Positions 8,628 through 53,530 are shown, numbered from the stretch's first letter. The stretch: 53,530 bases of DNA from a virus (IMGVR_UViG_3300035670_000278:1-53530), one strand, 5' to 3'. Made by a program: numbers and translations. Notes: generated by a model from the sequence alone, not told the origin.

Positions 8628-8661
8628 AAAAGCCCCCCAAAAATTAAATTTGGGGGGCTTT
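8628..8661 (-). terminator. Intrinsic terminator after major capsid gene
   Basis: AAAGCCCCCCAAA...TTTGGGGGGCTTT inverted repeat with A/T tails on both sides. Confidence 0.8.
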
Positions 8662-8686
8662 ATTTTGCGGATCTAAATCCTATAAA

Positions 8687-9721: not shown

Positions 9722-9744
9722 TGTTTTTTGTTTCACCTACCTTT

Positions 9745-11073: not shown

Positions 11074-11098
11074 ATGCTTAATTATAAATTTTTATATA

Positions 11099-11123
11099 TA
11101 AAAAGGCAAATAATCAGTTGCCT
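11099..11123 (-). terminator. Probable terminator after portal
   Basis: AGGCAA-N8-TTGCCT followed by TTTT on the minus strand. Confidence 0.5.
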
Positions 11124-11128
11124 AATAA

Positions 11129-38622: not shown

Positions 38623-38635
38623 TTTCTAATCTCCC

Positions 38636-39094: not shown

Positions 39095-39441
39095 TATATT
39101 GTTACCGATCTGCTCAAAGTAATAAACCCTTCAAGCAATTTAATTTTATTTAAATTGCTATCCGTCAACATAAGGTCATATGAGGATTTAGGATAGAATA
39201 ACTTGTTAGTCTGTGTTGGAGTCATCTTAATGGTTAATTTACCATTTGGCTCATCTATAATTATTCCGCCTGCTGGTGATGTAAGGGTAAAGGCTAATTT
39301 ACTGCCGCCCTTTGTATCACGAACCTGCATTTTTGCGGAACAGTCTGTAAGATCAATAGGATCACCGTCGTTGTCTTTATATTCAACGGTAAATGTGAAG
39401 GTAGTGTTTTGATCCACTTCCCAATTTTTTTGTCCTGCCAT
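39094..39441 (-). CDS. Ig-like tail/baseplate adaptor protein
   Basis: PIDLT..SAKMQVR...YDL.L.......LLEG.I motif. Confidence 0.6.
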   Translation of the reverse strand: MAGQKNWEVDQNTTFTFTVEYKDNDGDPIDLTDCSAKMQVRDTKGGSKLAFTLTSPAGGIIIDEPNGKLTIKMTPTQTNKLFYPKSSYDLMLTDSNLNKIKLLEGFITLSRSVTI

Positions 39442-39515
39442 TTGCTAAAATCTCCTAAAATAGGAAAACTCCTATGCCCATTTTAGCATAGGAGTCATCC
39501 TAATTGATTATTAAA

Positions 39516-39746
39516 TTATGCGGCTGGTTTTGTAAACCCAAAGCTACTTTCGTTTGGATTTAGAGCCTTTAGAATAACTGGCAAGCATGCTGCGATACCA
39601 CCCTTAATTAAATCTCCTGGGTCAGTATTTCCAGTCATGTAAAGAGCAATGGCAGCACCAAGAAAATGGCGGCCATAGCTTGCTAACGCTGCTAGAATTT
39701 TTTCCTGCATTGTTACCTTTCCATCATTGTTTAGATCTTGTTTCAT
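39516..39746 (-). CDS. Putative holin
   Basis: 76 aa, two short hydrophobic helices, LKALNP...FG ending; AGGAGG SD. Confidence 0.5.
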   Translation of the reverse strand: MKQDLNNDGKVTMQEKILAALASYGRHFLGAAIALYMTGNTDPGDLIKGGIAACLPVILKALNPNESSFGFTKPAA

Positions 39747-39814
39747 AAGACCTCCTATTTCTGGGCACTGTGCCCAGGAATTTTAGGGTTGCCCCTAAAT
39801 CTATTATACGCCTA

Positions 39815-41749
39815 TTATGCGGAAATGTCTACAATCTCACAATTTCCGTCTGAAGTACAGGCTAATGTTTGTGTTCCGCTTGTTCCATCTTCTGTTTCAT
39901 AGAAGGATAAATCTTCCCATCGAATTGACGACGGCATCTTAGCAAGAAGTTCTAAGTATTCTGTTTCTGTAACTTCCTGATATGGAGCCTGCTTATATGA
40001 ATGATCTGAGTGTGGCAAGAACGAAATGCCTGATACCTCATCAAAATGTTTATACACCCAAGCACCTACTTCCATCCACTCGTCTTCTTTTACAGATACA
40101 GTGATAGATGGCTTATGCTCACACCATTCACGTTGATACACAAGCCATGTATTAAGATGATCAATTGCTGTAAGGTCATCACGAACAATTGCACCTTCTG
40201 GCGCTTTTACTGGAAATGAGAATACGTAAGTATCATTTGGCTTCATGAAGTCGTCTTCATATGGAATTCCGACCTCTTTTAAAAATACAGACAAAGGATC
40301 TTTCTTGTCGCCACGAACTGTGCGAATATAATATGGGGAATGCCATGGATGCATTCCTGAAGATACGCCAGTTAGCTGTGAAACAGTTCCTGATGGCTTA
40401 ACGCAGGTAATTGCAGCAGATTCATTGATTCCAATCTTTGCTGCCTCTTCCTTATTTGTTTCTCTGGCATAGCTTCTCATGTCGTTTAAGAATTGACCTA
40501 AGCCTTCCAAATCCTGCTTTCCAGACATAAACTCATGCCCAAACTGTCCAGTTATAGAAACGCCAAGCAGTCTTTCTTCTTCCGTGTTATCTTTCCAAAT
40601 TTTACGAAGATACTTGAAATCCGTGAGTGTTGATTGCCAAGTTCCAAGTATTGTTGCTAGGGCTATTTTCTTTTGTATGTCTTTTCTAGAGTCGTGCTCC
40701 CTGATGACAACTTCCGAAAGATTGCAAAATTGGTATGGACGAAGAATGATTTCAGAGCAAGGATTGGTACCATAATGAATATCAGGGTCCCTTCTACCAA
40801 ACTTAGCGGCTTGTGATTGTGCAGCCTTGACATTATATATACCTCTTTCTCCAGATTTTGAATCATATAGATTTTTCCACTCAGCAATAAACTGCTCCAT
40901 CTCTGGTTTACGTGAATATGCCACTGAGTTGTTTGAAAGTGCACGTTGTGCATTATTCTCCCACCAATTTCCTGACTTGGCCTGTGCCATTTCTATATCA
41001 TTAATATTAGAAAGTGAAATCATAGCGGAACGACGAACTCCACCAACTACTACAACTTCGCCAATTTTACACATAATGTCATGAGCCTCAATAGGCTTTA
41101 GTTGGCGACCTGCTGCTGCTTTAAACTTTGCAATTGTAAAATCAAAAAGATTTATTAATGGCTGAGGGCCTGAAGAACGACCTCCCATTGTTTTAAGACG
41201 TGCGCCTGCTGGGCGAAGTTTTGATACATCTATTGCTGGGACCTGTCCCGCCCAAAGCATTGCAAGAAGTTCACGGTAGGCTTTAGCCCACCCATTCTTT
41301 GAATCTTCAACTACGATAACGGTTGTTGATTTCTCAAATGATTCGGGCACGGCAGGAAGTTTATTAACATACTTGTATTCAACAGAAAATCCAACACCAG
41401 TTCCACACATTAAGATATACATTGTTTCATCAAATGATCGTGGATTATCAACTGGAACAAACGAGCAGTTGTATCCTGCAACATGGTCTCTGTCAAGAGC
41501 AGCACCTGCAGTCATTACTGCTCGCATCGAAGGCATTACGTTTCTATTATAAACAGCATCTTTAAGTTCTTCTATAAGTTCTGCAGCTGGCTCATAGTTA
41601 TATCTTGTAAATAGATGATCTAGCATAAATGCAAAATATCTATCTACTGTTTCACCCCATGTCTCACGACGGTTTTCATCAGATAACCATCTTGCATATC
41701 TTGATAAAGCAATAAAATTTTCGTAGGGGTTTTCAATAACTTTCGCCAT
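39815..41749 (-). CDS. nrdJ: Class II (adenosylcobalamin-dependent) ribonucleotide reductase
   Basis: SRYARW..RRETW, YNCSF, GGVRRSA, TNPCSEI, FCNLSE, CVKPSGTVS, C-terminal AC....C pair; monomeric RTPR size. Confidence 0.93.
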   Translation of the reverse strand: MAKVIENPYENFIALSRYARWLSDENRRETWGETVDRYFAFMLDHLFTRYNYEPAAELIEELKDAVYNRNVMPSMRAVMTAGAALDRDHVAGYNCSFVPVDNPRSFDETMYILMCGTGVGFSVEYKYVNKLPAVPESFEKSTTVIVVEDSKNGWAKAYRELLAMLWAGQVPAIDVSKLRPAGARLKTMGGRSSGPQPLINLFDFTIAKFKAAAGRQLKPIEAHDIMCKIGEVVVVGGVRRSAMISLSNINDIEMAQAKSGNWWENNAQRALSNNSVAYSRKPEMEQFIAEWKNLYDSKSGERGIYNVKAAQSQAAKFGRRDPDIHYGTNPCSEIILRPYQFCNLSEVVIREHDSRKDIQKKIALATILGTWQSTLTDFKYLRKIWKDNTEEERLLGVSITGQFGHEFMSGKQDLEGLGQFLNDMRSYARETNKEEAAKIGINESAAITCVKPSGTVSQLTGVSSGMHPWHSPYYIRTVRGDKKDPLSVFLKEVGIPYEDDFMKPNDTYVFSFPVKAPEGAIVRDDLTAIDHLNTWLVYQREWCEHKPSITVSVKEDEWMEVGAWVYKHFDEVSGISFLPHSDHSYKQAPYQEVTETEYLELLAKMPSSIRWEDLSFYETEDGTSGTQTLACTSDGNCEIVDISA

Positions 41750-41841: not shown

Positions 41842-42837
41842 TTAAAATTTTTCTTCTAAATGCTTAAAGGCATTCTTAGTCAACTTAATCCAATTAAATT
41901 CTTCATGTATTTCAGTTGACTGAGCATAATAGTAGCCAGAATATGCTCTAAAGTTTTCAGTTACATCTAGCATTTGCTTTTCAAGATGTTCTTGATCTGG
42001 TTTAAACATTTGACCAACATGTGGATCTCCAACAGCTTTTGGCAAAGTCTCATTAGTAAGTGTAGACTTTAACTTTAGCGGACCTATATATTTTTCATAT
42101 TGAGCCCAGGGGTAGGTTGTTATTGTTGGCATTCCGCTTGCTAATCCTTGAAGCGGGATAAAACCAAAACCTTCTCCCCATGTAGGATAAACTAAACAAT
42201 GGTGGGTATGATAAAGATCTACGAGATTCTTTATATCAAAATCGTCTGTTATTACTGTTATATTAGAATACTTTTCATTTGGCATTATTACATTACCAAA
42301 TTTATCATAATATCTTAATGTATGAGAATTATGAGCTTTTATGGTTAATCTATATTTAGGATTATTGCCAAATAGCTTGGTAAAAGCATTAAGAACATTT
42401 TCGCCGCCTTTTCTTGGCGCAGGTTCTCCAACATGTAAAAATCTAAATGTATCTCCAACTACCCTACGGTACGGCTTCCAAATATCTTCTATACCATGTG
42501 GATATACTTTTATATCTTTTGTTACTCCATTATTTTTAAAAACTTCTGCATTCCAATTTGATGTAGCCCACACTTCATCGCAATCATTATTATACGAATT
42601 TACCCAATCTCTTCTCATCCCTGTAGATTCCCACGGAGTATAACCAATTTGATATTGATTTCTATGTAATTTAAAATGTTGAGGCTGTGTAAAATTTAAT
42701 TGTATTTGAGCTCTAGGGTCTGACCAACGAACTTCATGTCCTAATTTATGCAAAGAATTAACTATATTTTGTGCAGCATATCCAAATCCAACAGAAGGAT
42801 TTAACCCAGAACGGGGAACATACAAAGAAATACGCAT
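41842..42837 (-). CDS. Glycosyltransferase family 4 (GT-B)
   Basis: YTPWE, DEVW..S, PHG, FLHVG...RKG, VYPT.GEGFG.IPLQ.LASG.P; ATG 42837. Confidence 0.85.
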   Translation of the reverse strand: MRISLYVPRSGLNPSVGFGYAAQNIVNSLHKLGHEVRWSDPRAQIQLNFTQPQHFKLHRNQYQIGYTPWESTGMRRDWVNSYNNDCDEVWATSNWNAEVFKNNGVTKDIKVYPHGIEDIWKPYRRVVGDTFRFLHVGEPAPRKGGENVLNAFTKLFGNNPKYRLTIKAHNSHTLRYYDKFGNVIMPNEKYSNITVITDDFDIKNLVDLYHTHHCLVYPTWGEGFGFIPLQGLASGMPTITTYPWAQYEKYIGPLKLKSTLTNETLPKAVGDPHVGQMFKPDQEHLEKQMLDVTENFRAYSGYYYAQSTEIHEEFNWIKLTKNAFKHLEEKF

Positions 42838-42857
42838 TAAATTCCTAGTCAACTAAC

Positions 42858-42887
42858 TTGACAGTTGTTCACCGCCAATGCTATTAT
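42858..42887 (+). promoter_or_regulatory. SigA-type promoter
   Basis: TTGACA-N18-TATTAT (TGn-extended) before the GGAGGA SD of 42920. Confidence 0.6.
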
Positions 42888-42919
42888 TATAGTTCGTTAT
42901 CTCTATAGGAGGAATACCC

Positions 42920-43492
42920 ATGGAGAATATCAAACAACGTTTGAGCGAAGTTGCTCATAGTTGGACATCTATAGGAATGATAACATTATTTCTATTTGGA
43001 GTCCAGCCCCAAGCAATAGAAGTTCAAGCAAATGCTGTGCAGCCAGAAATAGCTGTAGAGCAAGTAGTACTACCAAAACAACTGAAAAGAGAAACGCTGG
43101 AAAAATTCAGCAACACTGTATACAAGCCTTCGGAGACACTTACAGATAAAGAACTTAAAGAGTTATTAAAAGCTGTAGGTTTTGAAGGAAAAGCCCTTAA
43201 AACGGCTTGGGCTGTTGCTAAGGCAGAGTCTAATGGTAGACCGATGGCTTACAACGGTAACAGGAATACTGGAGACAGTTCCTACGGAATTTTTCAGATT
43301 AATATGTTGGGAAAACTCGGCATTGATCGAAAAGAGAAATTCGAACTGCGATCAAATATACTTTTATTTGATCCTGTTATAAACGCAGAGATAACGTATT
43401 ACATGACTCAAGGCGGAAATGACTGGAGCTCATGGACATCCATTAGGAGTGGAGCCACCCAAAGATGGTTGGCAAAATTCCCTGAACAGTAA
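42920..43492 (+). CDS. Lysozyme-like/lytic transglycosylase with N-terminal signal or anchor
   Basis: AWAVAKAES.G...A.N......SYGIFQIN...L.DP..NA......G..W..W. Confidence 0.8.
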   Translation: MENIKQRLSEVAHSWTSIGMITLFLFGVQPQAIEVQANAVQPEIAVEQVVLPKQLKRETLEKFSNTVYKPSETLTDKELKELLKAVGFEGKALKTAWAVAKAESNGRPMAYNGNRNTGDSSYGIFQINMLGKLGIDRKEKFELRSNILLFDPVINAEITYYMTQGGNDWSSWTSIRSGATQRWLAKFPEQ

Positions 43493-43507
43493 GAATGGAG
43501 AAAGTCA

Positions 43508-43720
43508 TTGAAGATACAAATAGTATCTAAATATTTGGCTTTAGCAGAAGAGGGCCTTGTTCCTGGAATATTATGTCCAGTAGATCAAGGCCTTCTAATG
43601 CCTAATTTAGATTTAAATGATACAATTTACCTATATTGCTTATCTTGCAATTATAAGAACAGTATGGGATTAGAAGTTTATGACGGAATTGAAAAAGCAG
43701 TCAGAAAACATACAAACTGA
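43508..43720 (+). CDS. Small Zn-ribbon-like protein
   Basis: CPVD...YCLSC; TTG start after GGAG. Confidence 0.6.
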   Translation: MKIQIVSKYLALAEEGLVPGILCPVDQGLLMPNLDLNDTIYLYCLSCNYKNSMGLEVYDGIEKAVRKHTN

Positions 43721-43796
43721 CGGCGAAAGAATAAAAGAAACAGACCAAATGGGTCGTGAAAAATTTTGGGAAGATATTGGAAGACCAAATGACTGA
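43680..43796 (+). CDS. Possible 38-aa hypothetical protein
   Basis: MTELKKQ...MGREKFWEDIGRPND; overlaps both neighbours. Confidence 0.35.
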   Translation: MTELKKQSENIQTDGERIKETDQMGREKFWEDIGRPND

Positions 43797-43992
43797 ACAA
43801 AATCAAAATTTAGAAGATAACCTAGATATGGTTAATTATATTATGCTACATCGTATATATGACCTACTTACACTTATTGCAAATAAATTGGTGGGGCCAG
43901 AAGATACATCCAAACTTATAGAATATCATGATCAAGGATTTTTATTGGGCCCCACCCCATCATATACACCACAAGAATCTGAAGAAAAGTAG
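43789..43992 (+). CDS. Hypothetical protein
   Basis: ATG 43789 (MTEQNQ...YIMLHRIYD). Confidence 0.65.
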   Translation: MTEQNQNLEDNLDMVNYIMLHRIYDLLTLIANKLVGPEDTSKLIEYHDQGFLLGPTPSYTPQESEEK

Positions 43993-44027
43993 TTGACTTA
44001 AAAAATTTCATATGTGATAATAATGTT

Positions 44028-44125
44028 GCGCTGGTTGTAGCATCCCACCACTTTTGCTCCCAGCGTTTGTGCTTCGGCGCAGCAAGACCCATTCGGATCC
44101 GCCTCTGAATGGGTTTTGTCCTTTT
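44028..44125 (+). ncRNA. Candidate small structured RNA
   Basis: TTGACT-N17-GATAAT promoter 6 nt upstream; three stems including a cUUCGg tetraloop and a 15-bp terminator-like stem. Confidence 0.55.
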
Positions 44126-44143
44126 TGGAGGTATAATAAGATA

Positions 44144-44416
44144 ATGCAGTTAAAACATAAATTATTAACTCTAAACTCTACGCCTCAAAATCTGGTTACG
44201 AGAGAAGACGTACATTCCTTAAATACCTTATCTGTACAAAACATAATGACTGCGGGTTATGCATATTTGGGAAACGAAAATGTCAGTACTTCAAATTATG
44301 GACATAAGCTTTATCCTGGACAATCTTTTACAATAGAATTAGCCTGGTCTGATAATCTATACGCAATAGGAGATAGCGGAGTTCAGGTTGCTATATTAGA
44401 AATAGATAGACGATGA
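44144..44416 (+). CDS. Hypothetical protein (leaderless)
   Basis: TATAAT-N6-ATG at 44144; track start 44054 lies inside the structured RNA. Confidence 0.65.
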   Translation: MQLKHKLLTLNSTPQNLVTREDVHSLNTLSVQNIMTAGYAYLGNENVSTSNYGHKLYPGQSFTIELAWSDNLYAIGDSGVQVAILEIDRR

Positions 44417-44853
44417 CAAGCATTTCAATAACCCCTCCTACAACTATTGAAGATACCTGGCAAATTCAAGGCGGGACAATAGGAGGAACCCAACCTACAT
44501 TTAATGGATCTCCTCTATTCTCTGGTACATATATAAAAGTAGGAAATTTAGTACATTTCGAAATTCAAGTAGATATGGATAATATTACATCATTTGGAAC
44601 TGGTCAGTATTATATGACTCTTCCATTTCCTGCCCGTGTTGGATATAACTTTAAAGATGGCTGTTTGCACCATGTCAGCGAAAATAGAACATTTCATATC
44701 TCTGGACATGTATATGCTGGAAGCAATCAACTAACTCTATGGAGTGCTGATAAAGTTTCTAGTGGAGTTGAAGATACACCATTTACAGCTACATTTCCAC
44801 ATGCCATTACTACCGCTGACAACTTTCATATAGCTGGTACATATATAGTCTGA
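44413..44853 (+). CDS. Beta-rich protein resembling fibre C-terminal domains
   Basis: G.YIKVG.LVHF.I.......FGTGQYY.TLPF. Confidence 0.6.
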   Translation: MTSISITPPTTIEDTWQIQGGTIGGTQPTFNGSPLFSGTYIKVGNLVHFEIQVDMDNITSFGTGQYYMTLPFPARVGYNFKDGCLHHVSENRTFHISGHVYAGSNQLTLWSADKVSSGVEDTPFTATFPHAITTADNFHIAGTYIV

Positions 44854-44924
44854 GCCTCCTGTCAGGATTGAACTGACGGCCTTCCGCTTACAAGGCGGAT
44901 GCTATACCACTTAGCTAAGGAGGC
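44853..44924 (-). tRNA. tRNA-Thr (anticodon UGU), CCA not encoded
   Basis: GCCTCCT acceptor stem, AGTGGTA D-loop, TCCGC-CTTGTAA-GCGGA anticodon arm, GTTCAATC T-loop. Confidence 0.93.
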
Positions 44925-44929
44925 GGAAA

Positions 44930-45346
44930 TTAAGAAATATAATCTAATAAATTATTTATCTTAACAGCATCATCTTTTAATAATCCTAAAGCTGTATTAC
45001 ATTGACTACATAGTAGTCCTCTTACACATTTCCCACAAGAATAGGATCCTGGGCAGCATAAATGATCATGATCAATATTGATTGCATCTCTATCTTTACA
45101 AGAATGGCACTTTCCATCATGCAGAGCAAGCATGCTGTTATATTTATCTTCCGTTAGGCCATGACGTTTAAATTTTCTTTTAGGGCTATCCTTAGTTCTT
45201 TTATGAGGATTAGATTTTGTATACTGAACAACATAATTTGAATGACATTTTTTGCAGTAATTTCTTCTACCATCAGAGTATTTGCTGCCTTTAGCAAACA
45301 TTTCTATATTTTTAATAATGCCACATTTTATACATTTTTTATCCAT
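44930..45346 (-). CDS. Endonuclease VII-like HNH nuclease
   Basis: CxxC...CxxC N-terminus; IDHDH...VRGLLCSQCNTALG. Confidence 0.85.
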   Translation of the reverse strand: MDKKCIKCGIIKNIEMFAKGSKYSDGRRNYCKKCHSNYVVQYTKSNPHKRTKDSPKRKFKRHGLTEDKYNSMLALHDGKCHSCKDRDAINIDHDHLCCPGSYSCGKCVRGLLCSQCNTALGLLKDDAVKINNLLDYIS

Positions 45347-45424
45347 AGCTCAATATTAACATATACTGAGCTACTAGTCAATTAAAAGTGCGCCCGAAAA
45401 TTGCGGCGGCGGTAGAAGAGAAAC

Positions 45425-45493
45425 CTAAATCCAATATCCCATTAACACAATAATACCCATAACAATAAATAAACTAGATATATACAATATCAT
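45425..45493 (-). CDS. Possible 22-aa membrane peptide
   Basis: MILYISSLFIVMGIIVLMGYWI; ATGA overlap with the HNH stop. Confidence 0.4.
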   Translation of the reverse strand: MILYISSLFIVMGIIVLMGYWI

Positions 45494-45783
45494 GATGCCT
45501 TCTTATTTCCCTTAATAGTCTTTCTCATATGTGTTCTATATCGATGACAATTAGAACAAACTATCTCACATTTAGCAATTTCTTCATCTATCTTTTTCTT
45601 GGACAGAGTAGGGATCAATTCCATTACATTTTTATGCTTTTTACCACGGACGTGGTCAAAGTCCATCACATAATATGGATATTTGATCCCACAGTCCAAA
45701 CAAGGAGTCTTCTCCTTAAGATCTCGTATGTATTGCGCCAAATAAGCCTTCTGCTTGGCAATAGAGACCTTTTCAGTCTTCAT
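45490..45783 (-). CDS. HNH endonuclease
   Basis: CLDCG...MDFDHV...EEIAKCEIVCSNCHR.RT. Confidence 0.85.
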   Translation of the reverse strand: MKTEKVSIAKQKAYLAQYIRDLKEKTPCLDCGIKYPYYVMDFDHVRGKKHKNVMELIPTLSKKKIDEEIAKCEIVCSNCHRYRTHMRKTIKGNKKAS

Positions 45784-45858
45784 CTATGATAATACCTACA
45801 AAGAAGCATCATATGGCTTAATTATAGCAAGGAGAATTTTTTAATTACCCGCCCAAAA

Positions 45859-46200
45859 TTATTTTGATAAATATGCGATAGCTTTATTAAGTAAATCTAT
45901 GTCATCTCTAAACTGACCTAAACCAATATTACATGAATTACATAACCAAGATCTAAACTCACCAGTTTCCCAGTTATGGTCTAAGTACCATTTTGGTGAA
46001 GTTTTGTTACAAATAGGACATAGGTATCCATCTTCTGGATATGGAAATTGTTTTTTTAGTTGACTAGTTATTTTTTGAGATTCACCTTGACATAATTTGC
46101 AAACAGATTTGTAATGAATCTTTTTCAAGCTTGTTACAGCAATGACCATTTCTGATAATGGTTTTTCTATTTTACATACTCGACATGTTTTCATTTGCAT
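45859..46200 (-). CDS. Endonuclease VII-like HNH nuclease
   Basis: CPIC...LDHNW.TG.FR.WLCNSCNIGLG.F.D; real start may be ATG 46194. Confidence 0.82.
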   Translation of the reverse strand: MQMKTCRVCKIEKPLSEMVIAVTSLKKIHYKSVCKLCQGESQKITSQLKKQFPYPEDGYLCPICNKTSPKWYLDHNWETGEFRSWLCNSCNIGLGQFRDDIDLLNKAIAYLSK

Positions 46201-46298
46201 ACCTTATAGTGATTGTATAGTGTCATATGGGCAAAGTCAGATCTACTTTCGATCTCCTGCCCACATTTATCACAAATTATTATCCGATTAGCCGCCAT
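46191..46298 (-). CDS. 35-aa Zn-finger-like peptide (leaderless)
   Basis: MAANRIIICDKCGQEI...LYNHYKVCK; TATAAT-N6-ATG; ATGA overlap with 46194. Confidence 0.55.
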   Translation of the reverse strand: MAANRIIICDKCGQEIESRSDFAHMTLYNHYKVCK

Positions 46299-46507
46299 AT
46301 ATTTATTATATATTATCCAATTATTCTAGTCAACTGCTTTATTACATAGATATCATATAGATATATATTGATATCTGGGTATTTAGATTTTTTAGCAAAG
46401 CCCCCCTTTCCCCCCATTGAAAAATATTCTACAATGTTGGGAAAAGAGGAAAGCTGACATCTGGTACATTTGAGTTCCTTAGTGTAAGCCCCCCACAAAC
46501 CATGACA

Positions 46508-46537
46508 AGTATAACATCTAAGATTTTCTGTAGTCAA
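46508..46537 (-). promoter_or_regulatory. Leftward SigA-type promoter
   Basis: TTGACT-N18-TATACT with TG extension. Confidence 0.6.
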
Positions 46538-46802
46538 GACATTACGAAAACTTTTTTAAAATCGCAGAATTTTTGATCAACTAAAAATCAAGTTTTCTAA
46601 AATGTTAATATATTTTTTATTTGTATGATGCGGGGTTTGGCAATGTCCGATTTGTCTAATTAGTGCGCCCATATGTGACTTAACTCACAGAAAAAAGTAT
46701 GTGACGCTCCTCACAATGTCCTAGTATGTCCGAATTGTCCCCTTGAAAATGTCAGTGGTCTATGATTGAATTAAGGTATTAGATAAAAGAAAGGTTCAAC
46801 AG

Positions 46803-46919
46803 ATGAACACTATATATGAATCAAGAAACGACTACATGATAGTAGACCCTAACGACTACATCACCTGCCCAGTATGGGGCTTTCAAGTTTACAAGTCTCA
46901 CGATTGCTCAAAGCACTAA
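46803..46919 (+). CDS. 38-aa early hypothetical protein
   Basis: GAAAGG SD; MNTIYESR...CPVWG...HDCSKH. Confidence 0.6.
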   Translation: MNTIYESRNDYMIVDPNDYITCPVWGFQVYKSHDCSKH

Positions 46920-46935
46920 CGAAAGGAGCATATAA

Positions 46936-47100
46936 ATGCTAACTCAAAAAACATTAGATAAAATCGTCTATGAATATCAACATGGAGGTGTTCAAGGTAA
47001 TCACCCTGAACTAACCGCATATGAGCGTAAGGCTCTTCTAAAGTATCTCTTTAGACTTCCCGCTCATTGCTCTACATGTGAGCAAGGTCACACACACTAA
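46936..47100 (+). CDS. 54-aa early hypothetical protein
   Basis: GAAAGGAG SD; MLTQKTLDKIVYEYQHGG... Confidence 0.65.
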   Translation: MLTQKTLDKIVYEYQHGGVQGNHPELTAYERKALLKYLFRLPAHCSTCEQGHTH

Positions 47101-47168
47101 GCGTGTGTCTGACTTGAAAATGTCGGTGGCATAGTGTAGCCTAAAGGCATAACAATTAAATAAGGGTA

Positions 47169-47213
47169 TGAGCCTAGCAAATAAACCGCCTAGCGGGTGA
47201 GCCTAGCAAATAA
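47169..47213 (+). repeat. 16-bp direct repeat TGAGCCTAGCAAATAA x2 around a hairpin
   Basis: Copies at 47169-84 and 47198-213, in a 5' leader. Confidence 0.9.
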
Positions 47214-47249
47214 GACCCACTAACTACTAAACGAATAGGAAATAAATAA

Positions 47250-47414
47250 ATGAAAATCACTTACTCAGTATGGCAAGGCTCTATCATCAAGGGCACAGGA
47301 TTTACCGCTAGCACAATGAAAGAAGTTATTAAAACAATAGATGAACTAAATGAGGGCGGATTAAAGCCTAAGTTTGAGGCGTTTATCTCTAAGGTAGAAC
47401 AGGAAGTAAAATAA
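47250..47414 (+). CDS. 54-aa early hypothetical protein
   Basis: AGGA SD; MKITYSVWQG... Confidence 0.65.
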   Translation: MKITYSVWQGSIIKGTGFTASTMKEVIKTIDELNEGGLKPKFEAFISKVEQEVK

Positions 47415-47588
47415 ATGTATCAAATGTCATGGGAAAGAAACTCACAAGAATATAAATATGAAAGTATTCAATATGAAGATGATGTAGCGGAATACTTTGA
47501 TGAAGAACCGCTTGAAATATCTCTAGAGGAAATGCTAGAATTAGAAGATGAAGAAATTGAATTTGAAGAACTTATGGAGGCGATATAA
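47415..47588 (+). CDS. 57-aa highly acidic protein
   Basis: 22 D/E versus 2 K/R; abuts both neighbours. Confidence 0.65.
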   Translation: MYQMSWERNSQEYKYESIQYEDDVAEYFDEEPLEISLEEMLELEDEEIEFEELMEAI

Positions 47589-47589
47589 A

Positions 47590-47685
47590 ATGAAAAATTG
47601 CTCTATCTGCTACGGAAGAAAAGTCGTGTATATCGGTGATAGACATGATTACACAATAGAACCATGCGAAAGATGCGCTAAATGA
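47590..47685 (+). CDS. 31-aa CxxC...CxxC peptide
   Basis: GGAGG SD; MKNCSICYG...IEPCERC. Confidence 0.6.
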   Translation: MKNCSICYGRKVVYIGDRHDYTIEPCERCAK

Positions 47686-47768
47686 TTTGGCAATTTCTTC
47701 AGACCGCCTCCCTCCTTGCGCTATGCGTAGGGCTAGGCTTTTGTGTGGCGTATCTCATAATAAATTAA
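47682..47768 (+). CDS. 28-aa membrane peptide
   Basis: MIWQFLQTASLLALCVGLGFCVAYLIIN; ATGA overlap. Confidence 0.45.
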   Translation: MIWQFLQTASLLALCVGLGFCVAYLIIN

Positions 47769-47971
47769 CGGCGTGTTGGCTTGACAAAAGCTGATCGGCC
47801 CCCACGCTTTTGCGGGCCCGATTTGTACCATTATGTCCGATTTTAAAAACCCCTGAAAAATGTGAGATTTATCACAAAACGAAATGTCCGATTTGTACGC
47901 ATACTGGTCAGTAGAATGTCAGACCCCCCTGCTAGAATACTTGTATTAAATTAAATGAAAGGTAGGTCAAA

Positions 47972-48160
47972 ATGACTACACTAAATAAAATCCGAGAGAT
48001 TACTCTCGAAAATGTAAGTGCCGATGAGGCAAATCTAATTGTCTGCGTTTTTTGCTCAGACTACGCAGGAAATGTTTTCTGCGGAAATTGTAATGAGTAT
48101 AAAGGAATAATGACTCTTGGCGAGTGGTTATCCTATACCCAAGAAAGTTGGGTGATGTAA
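47972..48160 (+). CDS. Zn-binding-like hypothetical protein
   Basis: CVFC...CGNC; GAAAGGTAGG SD. Confidence 0.7.
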   Translation: MTTLNKIREITLENVSADEANLIVCVFCSDYAGNVFCGNCNEYKGIMTLGEWLSYTQESWVM

Positions 48161-48162
48161 TA

Positions 48163-48372
48163 ATGTCTATTGAAATTTTTGAAATGAATTCTAATGGTGC
48201 TGGTTGGGTATCATTAGAAAATGCTTCTGATGAAACTAAACTAGATTTAGAATTAGCAATAATTACTAATGCTGAAGTAAAAATGTTATGCTTCAAATGC
48301 CATGTTGAAATTCCTCGTGGTAATGTTTGCGTAAATCATAAAAATGTAAAGGGTGGTATTTATCTTGACTAA
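48163..48372 (+). CDS. Hypothetical protein (CxxC...CxxH)
   Basis: ATG 48163 after GGTGA SD. Confidence 0.65.
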   Translation: MSIEIFEMNSNGAGWVSLENASDETKLDLELAIITNAEVKMLCFKCHVEIPRGNVCVNHKNVKGGIYLD

Positions 48373-48508
48373 AGAATATATTTTTGGAACTTACCTAACA
48401 ATAAATGCTGAAAATGAAAATGAAGCAATTTATGCTTATGATCAAATAACTAAAAATAATATTTGGATTTCTGACTCTTATTGTTTTGAATGGCAAGAAG
48501 CAGAATAA
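48365..48508 (+). CDS. 47-aa hypothetical protein
   Basis: TTG start after GGTGG; fills the gap before a hairpin. Confidence 0.5.
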   Translation: MTKEYIFGTYLTINAENENEAIYAYDQITKNNIWISDSYCFEWQEAE

Positions 48509-48732
48509 AAAATAATAGTTGAAATTTCAATAACGCCCGCAGCTTTGCTGTGGGCCCGAAATGTCCGATTTATGAAGATCACGAAAAACGCCCTAAAAAT
48601 TTTCGACACGCCCGAAATTTTGTGATTTTTATCACACGATTTGAGCGTCTCATTATTTGGAATTACTGGCGAGTAAGTAGAAAAATGTCAGACCGCTAGG
48701 CTATAATAGCGACATAACGAAAGGAAAACTAA

Positions 48733-48933
48733 ATGTCAGCAAATGTCTATTCAATTGAAAACCTACTTGTAGGAAAAACTTATCGCTCAAAAACTTTGAC
48801 GGGCGAAATTATCTCTGCCGAAATTCACCCAAAAGGTATTTGGTATGAGGGTTGCGAAAGTTATCTTGTAGAAATTCGCAATTCTAACGGCGGTTATTCT
48901 TACCGCACAATTGCCGTAAAGGTTGGTGAATAA
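48733..48933 (+). CDS. Hypothetical protein (SH3-like pattern)
   Basis: GAAAGGA SD; LVGKTY...TGEI; resembles 52525..52680. Confidence 0.7.
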   Translation: MSANVYSIENLLVGKTYRSKTLTGEIISAEIHPKGIWYEGCESYLVEIRNSNGGYSYRTIAVKVGE

Positions 48934-49062
48934 ATGAATTTAGATGAATTCAGAAATTATGTAAAGGCTGAGCGTGAAGCAACACGCCAGCAAAACCTAT
49001 CCGCTATTTTGTCGGTGGCTTCTGCTACAATTACCAACAACAACGAACGAAAGGAAAACTAA
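48934..49062 (+). CDS. 42-aa hypothetical protein (contains an internal promoter)
   Basis: MNLDEFRNYVKAERE... Confidence 0.5.
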   Translation: MNLDEFRNYVKAEREATRQQNLSAILSVASATITNNNERKEN

Positions 49063-49064
49063 AA

Positions 49065-49226
49065 ATGAAACTAATCAAAACGATTGACTTTGATTGCTCT
49101 GCTTGTCATGGAAAGGGTTATCTCTACTATGGCGGTGCTGAGGATTGGAACATTGAAACTTGCGATTGTAATCTCAATGATGAATTGTTTGACGGCTCTC
49201 TATTCACAGAAGGAGAAGCGGAATAA
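49065..49226 (+). CDS. 53-aa Zn-finger-like protein
   Basis: CSACHGKG...IETCDC; similar to 47590..47685; GAAAGGA SD. Confidence 0.6.
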   Translation: MKLIKTIDFDCSACHGKGYLYYGGAEDWNIETCDCNLNDELFDGSLFTEGEAE

Positions 49227-49432
49227 TGTATAAAATTACTTGCGCCTATGATGAGCAACCTGCTCATTGGACACAACAGATTTCTGATGAGTTAGAGGCT
49301 CATAAAGAATTTGCTAAATTTATAGATTGGGGATTTGCTGACGAATACGCAACAGTAAATCTCTACACACCTAGCGGAAAATGCTATACAAAAATTTTCT
49401 ATCGTGAAGGTAGAAGGGTGGTAGAAAAATAA
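49226..49432 (+). CDS. Hypothetical protein
   Basis: 68 aa; TAATG coupling. Confidence 0.7.
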   Translation: MYKITCAYDEQPAHWTQQISDELEAHKEFAKFIDWGFADEYATVNLYTPSGKCYTKIFYREGRRVVEK

Positions 49433-49623
49433 TGATGACCCGAAAAGATTATATTTCTACTGCTGAAATTTTGCGCTATGTTTCAGATAAAACTCACCCA
49501 GCCGTTTTTTCTAAAATGGTAAATGATTTTGCTGAAATGTTCGCAAAAGACAATCCCCGATTTGATGTAAAAAGATTTCACGAAGCGAGCAATTATCGTG
49601 TTCCAAAATTTACCTCGAATTAG
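49432..49623 (+). CDS. Hypothetical protein
   Basis: MTRKDY...A......FA..F..DNPRFD..RF..A, a pattern typical of small phage proteins. Confidence 0.72.
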   Translation: MMTRKDYISTAEILRYVSDKTHPAVFSKMVNDFAEMFAKDNPRFDVKRFHEASNYRVPKFTSN

Positions 49624-49729
49624 AAAGGTTTTGGAATTGCGCCGTAGTAATGCGGCGCAACCAATTCCATCTAAGAAAAAATATAAAAGAAAACAAAAAC
49701 ATAAACGGCGTTTTGATTTGACAGAATAG
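49598..49729 (+). CDS. 43-aa basic peptide
   Basis: ELRRSNAAQPIPSKKKYKRKQKHK; GTG start uncertain. Confidence 0.5.
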   Translation: MFQNLPRIRKVLELRRSNAAQPIPSKKKYKRKQKHKRRFDLTE

Positions 49730-49868
49730 ATCGATGCCCGCATGTACGTGTGGGGGCTTTTTGTCAATTACGAACACTGTGATTTTTCCCACAAAATTTT
49801 GCGGAAAATTGTAAATGTCGGCGGCCTTTGCTATAATGTCAGCCTAAACCTAACGAAAGGAAAAACAA

Positions 49869-50366
49869 ATGGGATTAGATATGTATTTATCAGCTCGCAA
49901 GCATGTTGAAAAAACTGACTGGAGCAAATTAGATCGTGAGAATGGTATCTCTTATGCTGAGGCTACCTTCCCACAATTCAATGATGTAGTAGAGGCTGCT
50001 GGTGTTGCTACTCTTGTCGATAAGGATAGTATCTATGGCGTAGATGTATCCGTCAATGTTGCTTATTGGCGTAAGTCTAATCAAATACATAATTGGTTCG
50101 TGATTAATGTTCAGCGTGGGGAAGATGACTGCGGTGAATACTATGTGTCTAATGAAAAGATAAAGGAATTATTGGAAACCTGCCGTCAAGCGTTATTCAA
50201 TAAAGACCCTAATCTGCTACCGCCACGAGAGGGATTTTTCTTTGGCTCTACTGATGTCGATGAATGGTATTGGCAGGACATAAAAGATACCATCAAGCAA
50301 CTAAAACGCTTGACCGAATTGCCCGATTTTGACCGTTTATCGTTCTACTATCAGTCCTCTTGGTGA
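49869..50366 (+). CDS. Conserved phage hypothetical protein
   Basis: MGLDMYL...YWRK.NQIH.WF...DDC...GFFFGS...YYQSSW. Confidence 0.8.
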   Translation: MGLDMYLSARKHVEKTDWSKLDRENGISYAEATFPQFNDVVEAAGVATLVDKDSIYGVDVSVNVAYWRKSNQIHNWFVINVQRGEDDCGEYYVSNEKIKELLETCRQALFNKDPNLLPPREGFFFGSTDVDEWYWQDIKDTIKQLKRLTELPDFDRLSFYYQSSW

Positions 50367-50415
50367 TGTCGGTGGGGTAGGCTATAATCTACCCCATAAC
50401 GAAAGGAATTAATTA

Positions 50416-51132
50416 ATGTTAAAACGCTCTAAAGATAGAAAGGTCGCTAATGCCGTCTCCCCTAATGGAAAAACCCCAACAATTGCCAACACTTTTGGAT
50501 TGCCTGCTGGAAAGGCTTTCTCGTGCCCTGGTGCCACAAGTATTTGTGAAAGCGTATGCTATGCAGGAAAACTCGAAAAAGTCTACAAGGGAGTAAAAGC
50601 CGTACTCTTACACAATTGGGAATTACTTAAGAATGCGGACCATGACACCATGGTGCAATTAATTAATGACATGATTGTGGAATTTAAAGCGGAATGCGAT
50701 AAGCGGTCTGCAGATAAACTCTTCCGCATACACTGGGACGGAGATTTCTTTAACGATACTTATGCATATGCATGGAAGACCGTAATCGAAAAGCATTCCG
50801 ATGTTCAATTTTGGGTATATACTCGTGTCTCTTCTGCTGCCGTCATTCTAAAAGATATCTCTAACCTATCTCTTTATTATTCTACGGATGATGAGAATAA
50901 ACAGATTGCTGCCGAATTACGCAATGAGCATGGTACACGCCTTGCATATCTAGGAAAGACTTTTGCAGTCACCGAAAGCGTAATGAAAGAATTAACGGGC
51001 AAGCCTGGTGCTAAATGTCCTGAGAATAATAAATCTATTCCGCTAATCTCTACTAAGGGTAGCGCATGCGTGTCATGTGGGCTCTGCGTATTTAATAAAG
51101 CAGACATTCGATTTTCTGCGAGTAAAAAATAA
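50416..51132 (+). CDS. GP88-like Cys-rich protein
   Basis: F.LPAG..FSCPGA...C...CYA, FRIHW.GDF, FWVYTR, CP...C..C..C. Confidence 0.7.
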   Translation: MLKRSKDRKVANAVSPNGKTPTIANTFGLPAGKAFSCPGATSICESVCYAGKLEKVYKGVKAVLLHNWELLKNADHDTMVQLINDMIVEFKAECDKRSADKLFRIHWDGDFFNDTYAYAWKTVIEKHSDVQFWVYTRVSSAAVILKDISNLSLYYSTDDENKQIAAELRNEHGTRLAYLGKTFAVTESVMKELTGKPGAKCPENNKSIPLISTKGSACVSCGLCVFNKADIRFSASKK

Positions 51133-51317
51133 TGGCCTCTAATATTTTCACAAAACAAATTGCAGAATATTTAGAGGTCCCCTTAGATAAAGCGGAAGAG
51201 ATCCAAAATATTATCGATCAATATTTTTATTTAGATTGGTCGGAGGCTGATGATTTTGAAATGCGGGCCGCATTCCTTGCAGCTTATGAATTTTATAAAA
51301 TGCAGCTAAAGCTATAA
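51132..51317 (+). CDS. Hypothetical protein
   Basis: 61 aa, acidic; TAATG coupling. Confidence 0.62.
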   Translation: MASNIFTKQIAEYLEVPLDKAEEIQNIIDQYFYLDWSEADDFEMRAAFLAAYEFYKMQLKL

Positions 51318-51477
51318 AAGGCCCGCACAACTGTGGGGGCCCAAAGCGCTTTACGTCAAGTTGAAAATACGCCTGAAATTTGTGAGATCTATCACAAAGA
51401 CACGCCGATGCTCAAATTGTAAATGTCAGTAGTCTAATGTATAATTCCTAGCCTAACGACAAACGAAAGGAAAATAA

Positions 51478-51732
51478 ATGTCTTTAGATACAACTAACTG
51501 GGTGAAATACCCGTTTTCCGTTGATGGCGTGGATTTTGTATCCTTGCTTGACCCTAATGGAAGTTTTGCTCCGCAAATAGCACGACTACCTGAAGGTGTT
51601 TTTGCTAATGAGAATGCTCAGATGGTAGCCGAACTTATCGGTAATCCTGCCAAATTTACTCGTAATGAGTTAGAGGCAGAATTAGCCCGTGTCAATGATG
51701 GCGCTACGCAGGCTCTCTTAGCCTTAGCCTAA
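51478..51732 (+). CDS. Hypothetical protein
   Basis: GAAAGGA SD after promoter. Confidence 0.7.
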   Translation: MSLDTTNWVKYPFSVDGVDFVSLLDPNGSFAPQIARLPEGVFANENAQMVAELIGNPAKFTRNELEAELARVNDGATQALLALA

Positions 51733-51787
51733 AAATGTCGGTGGGCTAGTGTATAATCTAGCCCACTAACAACAACGAAAGGAAAAA

Positions 51788-52063
51788 ATGATAGCAACTG
51801 CTACTGCTCTTATTCAGGCAACTGAAAAAGCAATTATGGAAGATGACTCAATGGGTCTTGCCCAATTTATTACACACGAAAGAAATAATCTATCCCAAGA
51901 TGATTTTGCTAAAGCCATGTTCATGTATGCGACAATGATAGCGTCTAACGCCGTAGATAGCGTGACTAAAACACTACTAACTAAAGACCAATTCCAAGAA
52001 CTTATGGCTACTATTGACGAAATGGAAGAACTAAGAAACGAGGTATTATCAGATGGGGAGTAA
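51788..52063 (+). CDS. Hypothetical helical protein
   Basis: GAAAGGA SD after promoter. Confidence 0.7.
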   Translation: MIATATALIQATEKAIMEDDSMGLAQFITHERNNLSQDDFAKAMFMYATMIASNAVDSVTKTLLTKDQFQELMATIDEMEELRNEVLSDGE

Positions 52064-52334
52064 TTTTGCTACCGATTTAGCCAACTATGATTTAGGATTA
52101 GATTTATCTACTGCTATCTCAATACACCTATCCGCTAATCATTACCCGCCCGTTCCTCAAAGCATGGTGCTACCTTGTATTGAGGCACTTGAGGCTTATC
52201 ACGAATTAGATAATGATAGAGAAATTGCTATGCCCGAAGGCGTATCCTACAAAGGCAGGAATACCGCACCCGCATGGGCTATTATTGAACAACACCACCT
52301 AGAGGCGTGGCTCTACAATGACGAGGAGGAATAA
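52053..52334 (+). CDS. Hypothetical protein
   Basis: HL.ANHYPPVP...HHL.AW; GAGG SD. Confidence 0.72.
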   Translation: MGSNFATDLANYDLGLDLSTAISIHLSANHYPPVPQSMVLPCIEALEAYHELDNDREIAMPEGVSYKGRNTAPAWAIIEQHHLEAWLYNDEEE

Positions 52335-52471
52335 TGGCTAAAGTAAAAGAGCTATGGTCGTCAAGCCTAACTAGCGACATGGTATCAGATCTAGACGAAG
52401 ATACCATAGCCGATTTAGTAGAGGCTCTAAATGACGCAGTAATGCTTACCTGCCAAGACTACGGGGTATAA
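52334..52471 (+). CDS. 45-aa acidic hypothetical protein
   Basis: GGAGGA SD; MAKVKELWSS...CQDYGV. Confidence 0.6.
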   Translation: MAKVKELWSSSLTSDMVSDLDEDTIADLVEALNDAVMLTCQDYGV

Positions 52472-52524
52472 ATGTCGGTGGGCTATGATAAGATAGCCCT
52501 TCAACAACTAACGAAAGGAAAAAA

Positions 52525-52680
52525 ATGGCTACAACGCTAGAAGTAGGACAGACCTACACAACCACTCAAAGTGGTATCACAGGAATAATCAAGGCAGTAG
52601 ATAATCACCCTTCAGGTGTAAATCGTATTCTCCTTGATGTCAATGGCAAGGAACGCTGGACAAGCGCAACTGCTAAATAA
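52525..52680 (+). CDS. 51-aa hypothetical protein (SH3-like pattern)
   Basis: GAAAGGA SD; LEVGQTYTT..SGITGII....RILLDV.G.ERWT. Confidence 0.65.
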   Translation: MATTLEVGQTYTTTQSGITGIIKAVDNHPSGVNRILLDVNGKERWTSATAK

Positions 52681-52753
52681 ATAAAAGTAATGGGCTACTG
52701 CTTGTCAGTAGCCCATGCTACAATTCTCGCTCATAACTAACGAAAGGAAAATA

Positions 52754-53173
52754 ATGTCAAGAGGCAAAGCGATAAATGTCAAGATTGCTACAACCAAAGT
52801 AATCAAGGCACTAGAAACTAAATTGGCTCAAATCCAAAAGGATAAGGCTAACCAAGCAAATAACGAGGCTAAGTTCAAGAAACTTACTGATAAGCATAAC
52901 AAGGAAGTAGCGAAACTTGCGGTATCTGCTATTGCGAAAGCAACAGACCTATCTGCTCACACTCGCTACAATGGCGAAATCGCAGTATCTTTCAATCTCC
53001 CTGCTGGAAGTATTGAATTACCTGATGAACCTCAAAAAGACTACGAGTCTTACCACGATTGGCAGTATCGTGAGATGATAGAGGAAATTGAGAACGCAAT
53101 TCGTATTCTCAAGATGACAGATGAGGAAGTAGTTAGCACCTCAACTTACAACGCTATCGCTCGTTATCTATAA
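52754..53173 (+). CDS. Hypothetical coiled-coil protein
   Basis: ATG 52754 after GAAAGGA SD; track start 52715 lies in the promoter. Confidence 0.75.
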   Translation: MSRGKAINVKIATTKVIKALETKLAQIQKDKANQANNEAKFKKLTDKHNKEVAKLAVSAIAKATDLSAHTRYNGEIAVSFNLPAGSIELPDEPQKDYESYHDWQYREMIEEIENAIRILKMTDEEVVSTSTYNAIARYL

Positions 53174-53244
53174 AAGATTGGGGGCTAGACAAAAATCTAG
53201 CCCCCATGCTATAATTCTCTCTCCTACTAACAGAAAGTAAATAA

Positions 53245-53469
53245 ATGGAAATAGATATTTTTGAGGTAGAATACTCAGTATCTCCTGGCGGTGTTGATTG
53301 TTGGGAAGCAGAAGTCAGAGGTTATGGTCAAACCACAAACTATTCTGAATATAAAACTGCTGGCGAAGCCCTAAATCATATGCTATCGCTCTATGGCGAC
53401 AACGAACTAAATGTAAATGTAATAAGCCTAACCGCTTATGCTAAATTAGAAGAAGGTGCGTATGCGTAA
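53245..53469 (+). CDS. Hypothetical protein
   Basis: 74 aa, downstream of a TAGACA-N18-TATAAT promoter. Confidence 0.68.
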   Translation: MEIDIFEVEYSVSPGGVDCWEAEVRGYGQTTNYSEYKTAGEALNHMLSLYGDNELNVNVISLTAYAKLEEGAYA

Positions 53470-53530
53470 TCGTTATCGTGTTGAGATTTATGATGAAGAC
53501 AAGAATAATGACATCACATTCTTTTCTGAA
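53462..53530 (+). CDS. Hypothetical protein (truncated at window end)
   Basis: MRNRYRVEIYDE...; AAGGTG SD. Confidence 0.55.
   Translation, partial: MRNRYRVEIYDEDKNNDITFFSE

Follow-up and report, generated by a model that had tools for sequence, protein, structure and literature searches.

What switches on the run of small genes at one end of a virus contig from IMG/VR, and which protein reads the switch? The DNA analyzed here, referred to as the window, is the entire linear contig IMGVR_UViG_3300035670_000278:1-53530 (53,530 bp; CheckV completeness estimate 50%). On its plus strand the small genes are preceded again and again by the element TGTCRG-N10-TANNNT, which has the sequence and the spacing of the promoters controlled by PafBC, the WYL-domain activator of the bacterial DNA-damage response. 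This suggests that nearly all early genes of the phage start from promoters equal to PafBC sites and that a host alarm is put to use by the virus. We assign a probability of about 0.5 to the reading that PafBC of the host has been hijacked as the activator of the early promoters.

A Recurrent Promoter Element With a Fixed Spacer

The pattern TGTCRG-N10-TANNNT has ten exact plus-strand sites between 47121 and 52703, preceded by an imperfect site at 46750 in which the -10 reads TTGAAT (Table 1). All eleven sites, including their invariant 10-nt spacer, had been listed in a first-pass annotation of the window and were recovered at the same positions. Counted over both strands of the entire window, the exact pattern occurs 11 times, against a mean of 0.78 and a maximum of 3 in 100 shuffled sequences, none of which reached 11. 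The eleventh of these matches, at 14453 (+), lies within a minus-strand open reading frame (ORF) and is chance-like. When the spacer was varied, the counts on the plus and minus strand were 11 and 0 for N10, 0 and 0 for N8, 0 and 1 for both N9 and N11, and 3 and 1 for N12; the three plus-strand N12 matches fall at motif sites with a TATAAT -10, and we read them as a by-product of that hexamer. The bare hexamer TGTCRG has no strand bias (20 copies on the plus and 22 on the minus strand), and most of the copies on the minus strand belong to ATG-TCA-G start codons or to coding sequence.

A Shine-Dalgarno (SD) sequence of the GAAAGG type is found within about 15-40 nt downstream of 10 of the 11 sites, in line with the earlier description, the promoter at 47121 having a longer leader (Table 1). 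None of the structural genes is preceded by the motif, as had also been noted: N10 matches on the minus strand of the window number zero.

Conservation of the Motif in Related Phages

Relatives of the GP88-family gene of the window are present in at least 595 stretches in IMG/VR, and the best 80 of these (78-96% identical) were taken with their flanks, amounting to 1.26 Mb. On the gene strand of these loci the motif was counted 1090 times, on the other strand 6 times. Alternative spacers on the gene strand are rare compared with the 1090 sites with N10 (9 with N7, 18 with N8, 11 with N9, 3 with N11 and 27 with N13); we again ascribe the 106 matches with N12 to TATAAT. Single-base variants of the hexamer stay at background level, 2-25 against 1100, all six positions being near-invariant. 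From 744 unique sites we obtained the logo aAAA-TGTC(A 70%/G 30%)G-T-(G/C)(G/C)-nnnn-T-G-n-TA-t-A-A-T. The next base after the hexamer is T at 73% of the sites and the one after that G at 54%, and the -35 zone (positions -5 to -12 from the hexamer) holds at most 0.14 bits. Promoter positions are counted throughout from the -10, not from mapped transcription starts. Since the length of the spacer is invariant and its sequence varies freely, the element and the -10 are expected to be read together by one complex.

Five complete relatives (107-115 kb, CheckV 100) carry 15-20 sites per genome on a single strand, nearly all within one block of 10-12 kb, and have 0-1 sites on the opposite strand; a reversed-pattern control gave 0-3. 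The search in relatives that the first-pass annotation had proposed thus bore out the motif, both in the strand counts of the 80 loci and in the confinement to the early block of complete genomes. TGTCRG-N10-TANNNT is a predicted early-promoter class, family-wide in low-GC aquatic actinophages.

A hairpin as part of the promoter was considered and rejected. Positions 4 and 13 show no covariation and the pairs with the highest mutual information are neighboring positions. Inverted repeats around the -10 are not a general feature either, stems of at least 5 bp being found at 6.4% of 753 sites versus 6.1% of re-paired controls; stems of at least 7 bp flank the -10 at only 17 of the 753 unique sites, so that hairpins do not belong to the promoter in general. 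In the window, some -10s do coincide with or follow a strong hairpin (51741-51766, 52690-52716, and 53179-53206); on the minus strand these hairpins read as terminators with a T run.

Two aquatic metatranscriptome runs from two studies contain 13% and 5% of the sampled words. At 90% likeness, contigs of these RNA libraries, mostly from relatives, touch 28 of 30 and 23 of 30 bins, and those of a third run touch 1; these are assembled contigs from libraries possibly containing DNA, and they give neither starts, strand nor levels.

Comparison With PafBC Promoters and Other Known Systems

The RecA-NDp consensus of Gamulin is said to read tTGTCRgtg-8nt-TAnnnT. According to the excerpts available of the papers cited here and below, the in vivo consensus of PafBC, obtained by chromatin immunoprecipitation, is tGTCgg(N10)tA(N3)T, with its 5' part at -23 to -28 (the '-26 element'), and PafBC promoters have a canonical SigA -10 and no -35; the GTC triplet is read by PafB and is nearly invariant across actinobacteria (PMC8635444). 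RecA-NDp promoters are described outside mycobacteria as well, including Streptomyces (PMC8223512, PMC5087735). The phage sites agree with this class in having TGTCRG at -28 to -23, a spacer of exactly 10 nt, a SigA-type TANNNT, a family logo with no information for a -35, a 'TG' following the hexamer, and an actinobacterial setting. The register from the first base of the element to the first base of the -10 is 16 nt, as in PafBC promoters, at 10 sites of the window and 1090 in relatives. The identification of TGTCGG-N10-TA-N3-T as the RecA-NDp/PafBC element in the first-pass annotation therefore agrees with the published motif and geometry, as far as the excerpts of PMC8635444 give them. Unlike PafBC promoters, the phage sites number 15-25 per genome and stand ahead of small early genes, not DNA-repair genes. 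Their hexamer is near-invariant at all six positions with an A-rich 5' flank, they often have the TG of an extended -10, and a subset has a -35.

The middle promoters of phage T4 consist of a MotA box at -30 and a -10, and are served by MotA/AsiA through sigma appropriation. There, too, an element closer than the -35 replaces it and is read via a protein that bridges to sigma region 4. The two systems differ in that no AsiA or MotA homologue was found in any of the five complete relatives, the phage element has the sequence of a host activator's site, and the phage sites serve a block that is expected to be the earliest. A comparison of PafBC to MotA/AsiA sigma appropriation is made in the excerpts of PMC8635444 itself. 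In mycobacteria the -26 region also serves a second WYL activator, SiwR, there by a GGA triplet (PMC10693628). The SiwR promoter of Mycobacterium smegmatis resembles the phage promoters in using a WYL-class activator via the -26 region, but it has the GGA triplet, a palindrome between -35 and -10 and a sequence unlike TGTCRG, and it serves a single operon.

The early block of Karimac, a Streptomyces phage of the Stanwilliamsviridae, shares with the window its synteny, one promoter per gene, a GP88 homologue, and a major capsid protein (MCP) and portal that are about 57% identical. Its promoters are of another kind, with a TTGaca-like -35, a TAGACT -10, a GC-rich upstream motif and 0 TGTCRG-N10 sites, in a genome of 49% GC compared with 38% here. 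In positions 1-11600 of Karimac (locus L001), many early genes are preceded by a terminator hairpin and the GC-rich motif GCCGCCCCGG..AAAGATCTTG, followed by this -35 and -10.

Identity of the Phage and Its Early Block

ORFs are cut at both ends of the window, which is half of a phage of about 107 kb, and GC ranges from 0.30 to 0.42 along it. The minus strand of the first 46.5 kb holds structural and nucleotide-metabolism genes, with PHROGs matches to a portal (phrog_12), a head protease, an MCP (phrog_1623), tail fiber proteins, ribonucleotide reductase and glycosyltransferases. In MCP and portal the phage shares about 57% identity with Streptomyces phages of the BE cluster (Stanwilliamsviridae); among the 40 rows of matches listed, Rhodococcus phages follow with 40-42%, and all remaining phages reach at most 37%. 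The MCP has matches in 210 records, of which 127 come from Streptomyces phages and 9 from Rhodococcus phages, and in the MCP tree the window clusters with the phages of these two genera (100/100 versus the outgroup).

The gene order is that of Karimac: reductase, glycosyltransferase, transglycosylase, tRNA-Thr, HNH, and then the run of small genes with one promoter each, which in Karimac makes up the first 11.6 kb. Terminal repeats of about 11 kb are given for BE1-cluster phages (PMC5764925, abstract). The synteny with the terminal-repeat region of Karimac marks the motif region as the early, host-takeover block. Because the early promoters of Karimac are of the ordinary -35/-10 host type, the syntenic block should need host machinery alone.

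WhiB scores above the Pfam cut-off in all five complete relatives and in one further genome (G010, described below), and among 14 control genomes only in Corynebacterium. The gene whiB serves as an actinophage marker in studies of freshwater phages, in the excerpts of PMC10202952 and PMC6802176. Judged by its MCP and portal kinship, synteny, WhiB and the GP88-family gene, the phage is an actinophage. Among the gene products of the complete relative G001 are a DnaE-type polymerase, RecA, DnaB, primase, thioredoxin, Hsp20, WhiB and a CHAP lysin.

Distribution of the Element Over Phage Lineages

A pattern scan of IMG/VR yielded at least 120 stretches with the motif; among the matches listed, most belong to the lineage of the window (lineage A) and some to a lineage B, comprising G006, G008, G009 and G010 (GC 0.39-0.43). 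The MCP of lineage B is 42-47% identical to that of the window and 37% to that of G001. The MCP tree places lineage B as the sister group of the Rhodococcus phages (96/98) and away from lineage A, and the motif bearers thus form two groups with motif-less soil actinophages in between. Forcing all bearers into one clade costs 15.2 log-likelihood units in the approximately unbiased test (p = 0.0265), a value to be read with the long branch of lineage B in mind and with the fact that the constrained group was defined after the identities were seen. G010 (99% complete) has 14 sites at 12.9-23.0 kb on a single strand, with WhiB present and no WYL domain. Many sites of lineage B have a weak -10 (TAAAAT, TAAGAT), no TG and no -35, which leaves the conserved TGTCGGTGG as the sole strong element, and an activator is therefore called for.

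Lineage C consists of G007, a 61.9-kb fragment (loci L249-L252), and L206. Its structural genes, with portal phrog_776 and head phrog_777, fall into other PHROG families. With A and B it has no more than 7-12 ORFs of at least 60 amino acids in common, mostly small accessory proteins. G007 carries 8 sites on one strand and 0 on the other; five of them are convincing, all with the leader ATAACGAAAGGAAA.

The element is distributed according to a low-GC aquatic setting and not to phage phylogeny, travels together with promoter-leader cassettes, and works with different cores. Its presence in phages with different cores favors a reader supplied by the host, although a small phage gene common to them would fit too.

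Several side observations concern the cassettes. Downstream of most promoters stands a conserved leader, TAACGAAAGGAAAA. In contigs of two RNA libraries, 50396 is joined to 52735, with 2338 nt omitted precisely at two leaders. Few early genes are near-universal, and many occur in just 1-40 of the 80 loci. Conserved early proteins are encoded at 49432-49623, 52525-52680 and 52751-53173, as well as at 52053-52334. It appears that the promoter-leader repeats are the points at which gene cassettes are shuffled.

Palindromes Upstream of the Promoters

Seven palindromes of the form TGTGA-N6-TCACA, which we take to be the actinobacterial Crp consensus, lie upstream of motif promoters (Table 1). Six are perfect and one, at 49778, has one mismatch; all are in the early region, against 1.9 expected per window. 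The palindrome recurs in 81 of 81 sources (the 80 loci and the window) with 293 unique copies, whose centers lie at -54.5, -64.5, -74.5 and -84.5 from the assumed start, with an extra group at -69.5. This 10-bp phasing is typical of a class I activator. A second sequence, ATGTCCGAWTT, has five perfect plus-strand copies (46643, 46726, 47833, 47884, and 48561) upstream of palindromes and promoters and is also found in three relatives; it resembles the promoter hexamer except for a C at the R position.

Which Protein Reads the Element?

Under the reading that we favor, the early promoters would be hybrids of a conserved -26 element (AAATGTCRGT at -31 to -22), an exact 10-nt spacer and a SigA-type -10 (TAnAAT), mostly with an extended TG and in most cases with the -35 missing. 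The reader of the -26 element would be the host WYL-domain activator PafBC, which, bound to single-stranded DNA (ssDNA), would dock between region 4 of the housekeeping sigma factor and the element ('sigma adaptation'). The ssDNA trigger may come from phage DNA entry, from resected phage ends or from host DNA breakdown, and the takeover genes would in this way be started via the LexA-independent DNA-damage sensor of the host. PafBC is described as constitutively present and as switched on by ssDNA in the excerpts of PMC10693628. Three parts of this picture are inferred: the role of PafBC as the reader, its presence in the host, and phage entry or host DNA breakdown as the source of the ssDNA. 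The match to the PafBC motif, the spacing, the confinement to the early block, the more than 1000 conserved sites, the actinophage kinship and the lack of a recognizable phage reader together make host PafBC the most likely reader. The proposal in the first-pass annotation that takeover genes are run from the host damage sensor thus stands as far as motif geometry, early confinement and actinophage kinship (WhiB in 5 of 5 complete relatives) are concerned, whereas the absence of the motif from six cultured relatives speaks against it.

These six phages (Karimac, Faust, Naboo and Gilson on Streptomyces; Weasels2 and Dorin on Rhodococcus) have 0-2 matches each, which is chance level, and belong with a number of other points that weigh against PafBC as the reader. 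RecA-NDp promoters are described in the host groups of all six (PMC5087735, excerpts), so the wider phage group does not in general rely on the motif. PafBC requires ssDNA for activity (PMC10693628, excerpts), and ssDNA would have to be present at time zero of an infection. The extended -10 is common (T at -15 in 63% and G at -14 in 79% of sites) and may permit firing independent of PafBC. A -35-like hexamer stands at 17 nt in 4 of the 11 window sites (TTGAAA at 46750 and 47121, TTGTAA at 49816 and 51424), all four as listed in the first-pass annotation, and TTGACA stands at 18 nt in 4 of the 5 convincing sites of G007. The hexamer of the phages allows less variation than the mycobacterial consensus, in which the lower-case t, g and g denote at most 50% conservation, and this could indicate another reader. 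The promoter-leader cassettes of lineages A, B and C look related by descent, the leader ATAACGAAAGGAAA being present in all, and the spread across three lineages is exchange, not independent invention. About 20 proteins, most of them without a known family, are common to lineages A and B (G001 and G010) but missing in Karimac and Weasels2; of these, G007 also has three small proteins and one domain. Lastly, portal relatives (71-84% identical) at four loci (L086-L089) lie in three metagenome-assembled genomes named Bacteroidia, Cytophagaceae or Bacteroidetes. A Bacteroidetes-type host was rejected: the contigs were probably mis-binned by composition, as the strong SD sites, the TATAAT -10s and whiB of the phage would indicate. 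One of these three genomes also carries two WhiB genes, on separate contigs (C49 and C51 of G011).

The main rival to host PafBC is a reader encoded by the phage. Such a factor, made early from the promoters bearing a -35 or delivered with the virion, would read TGTCRG and recruit or remodel the host SigA-RNA polymerase, as an analogue of T4 MotA/AsiA or as a mimic of the PafB helix-turn-helix without WYL, and the likeness to PafBC would be mimicry or coincidence. We regard this as somewhat unlikely. It would account for the restriction of the motif to aquatic low-GC lineages and its absence from six phages on hosts of RecA-NDp groups, for the strict hexamer, and for the proteins that accompany the motif, and the subset with a -35 could fire first. 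However, the element stands on nearly every promoter of the block, so that little could be expressed before the factor exists, and it would be a striking coincidence if the element agreed six out of six with the site of a host activator in sequence, position and spacer. Searches of the genomes did not bring up a reader of a known type either. No WYL domain was found in the window or in the five complete relatives, and none scored over the cut-off in five further records including G010. Sigma70_r2, AsiA (PF09010) and MotCF/MotA (PF09158) were each found in 0 of the 5 complete relatives, where analogues of other sequence may exist, and HTH_11 gave only sub-threshold matches in an open frame of 47-66 amino acids outside the early block. 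A phage-encoded PafBC copy or WYL-type mimic, which the first-pass annotation had offered as an alternative, is unlikely given that neither the window nor six complete or 99%-complete genomes have a WYL domain. Ten of the proteins specific to A and B were scanned against Pfam: MazG, Hsp20, subtilase and a sub-threshold Zn ribbon were recognized, six had no match, and no known DNA-binding regulator was among them. A candidate partner of the element encoded by the phage is the acidic early protein at 52053-52334, which is one of the small proteins shared with G007 and is found in 73 of the 80 loci. Its AlphaFold model has a pLDDT (predicted local distance difference test) of 90.4; a Foldseek search of the model against the PDB gave no match (best E 2.4, TM [template modeling score] at most 0.31), and the protein atlas had no usable one.

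Alternatively, the promoters may be ordinary SigA promoters with a -10 or extended -10, with or without a -35, and TGTCRG an operator in the spacer, at which a phage or host repressor would shut the early block at the middle switch. Mycobacterial promoters often depend on the -10 alone, the extended -10 is frequent here, G007 has full TTGACA-18-TATAAT-type promoters with TGTCAG inside the spacer, and a common site across the block would suit a coordinated shut-off. We nevertheless consider an operator distinctly improbable. A repressor needs overlap, not register, and the fixed distance of 10 nt with a free spacer sequence speaks for one complex; the site is asymmetric, with neither a dyad partner nor hairpin covariation; the -10s of lineage B are weak, with no TG or -35; and a generic sigma-70 scan of the region showed no enrichment (27 versus 22.9 expected). 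It is very improbable that the docking protein at -26 is another host factor, be it a different WYL-type activator (PafBC/SiwR class) or a factor peculiar to the streamlined Actinobacteria of fresh water. We know of no such other -26 factor, and the sequence of the element is that of PafBC, not that of SiwR. The stricter hexamer and the absence from Streptomyces and Rhodococcus phages would suit such a factor, and the use of the -26 region by SiwR makes it a general docking place (PMC10693628, excerpts).

Returning to host PafBC, a wider version of this reading can be proposed, to which we give slightly less than even odds. Several abundant lineages of freshwater actinophages, one of them structurally unrelated, would have wired their whole takeover to the ssDNA-sensing PafBC. 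An alarm raised by incoming or resected phage DNA or by host DNA breakdown would ignite 15-25 early promoters, the cassette would have spread by recombination, and the phased CRP/GlxR-like sites on many promoters would add a cyclic AMP (cAMP) signal.

Novelty and Significance

Titles and abstracts on PafBC, RecA-NDp, sigma adaptation and phages, actinophages included, contain no description of phage promoters of the PafBC type among the matches listed, in agreement with the first-pass annotation, in which no awareness of such a description for phages was stated. What would be new here is the PafBC-type -26/-10 promoter, known from bacteria, as a multi-copy early promoter of phages. PafBC 'sigma adaptation' is so far known solely as a bacterial DNA-damage response, and if PafBC is the reader, a virus would be exploiting a stress or defense sensor of its host as its start signal. 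This could bear on the effect of PafBC on phage resistance, pafBC having been linked to mycobacteriophage resistance in a 2025 study cited in the excerpts of PMC12848934. The element would also provide a sequence-based host marker for very abundant uncultured freshwater phages, to judge from the number of GP88 relatives, and, with more than 700 distinct promoter variants, a natural collection in which the -26 element could be dissected. If the reader is instead encoded by the phage, a new sigma-appropriation system in actinophages would be at hand.

Other Features of the Window and Its Relatives

The features of the window are collected in Table 1.

Table 1. Promoters, genes and upstream sites of the window
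Feature	Position	Strand	Remarks
tRNA-Thr	44852-44924		
CRP/GlxR-like palindromes, TGTGA-N6-TCACA (seven)	46674-46689, 46700-46715, 47077-47092, 47861-47876, 48621-48636, 49778-49793, 51381-51396		Upstream of motif promoters
Promoter TGTCAG-N10-TTGAAT	46750-46771	+	Imperfect -10; TTGAAA at 17 nt; first promoter of early block
Early block	46803-53530	+	About 23 small genes; truncated by contig end; synteny with terminal-repeat early block of Streptomyces phage Karimac
Promoter TGTCGG-N10-TAGCCT	47121-47142	+	TTGAAA at 17 nt; leader of about 105 nt
Promoter TGTCAG-N10-TAGAAT	47917-47938	+	TGc extended -10
Promoter TGTCAG-N10-TATAAT	48686-48707	+	
Promoter TGTCGG-N10-TACAAT	49010-49031	+	Within end of small ORF 48934-49062; precedes gene 49065-49226
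Promoter TGTCGG-N10-TATAAT	49816-49837	+	TTGTAA at 17 nt
Promoter TGTCGG-N10-TATAAT	50367-50388	+	Ahead of GP88-family gene
GP88-family gene	50416-51132	+	PF17338, E 1.9e-54; bait for relatives
Promoter TGTCAG-N10-TATAAT	51424-51445	+	TTGTAA at 17 nt
Promoter TGTCGG-N10-TATAAT	51736-51757	+	
Conserved early protein, 93 amino acids, acidic	52053-52334	+	In 73/80 loci and lineages B and C; invariant NHYPP, HL..W
Promoter TGTCGG-N10-TAAGAT	52473-52494	+	
Promoter TGTCAG-N10-TACAAT	52703-52724	+	Hexamer in loop and 3' arm of terminator-like hairpin
Promoter TAGACA-18-TATAAT, no TGTCRG	53186-53215	+	Early-block promoter; TG extended -10

The leader of the 47121 promoter (47143-47250) contains two copies of the direct repeat GAGCCTAGCAAATAA. 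In lineage C, G007 encodes a 3338-amino-acid protein (42026-52042) and a 1102-amino-acid protein (38047-41355) with a weak match (E 1.1e-07) to the Alt-like RNA polymerase ADP-ribosyltransferase family. On the minus strand of the window at 44930-46200, between the tRNA and the early block, lie three Cys-rich ORFs of 97-138 amino acids; by eye they have the look of HNH-type endonucleases, and annotated HNH genes are found at this place in Karimac.

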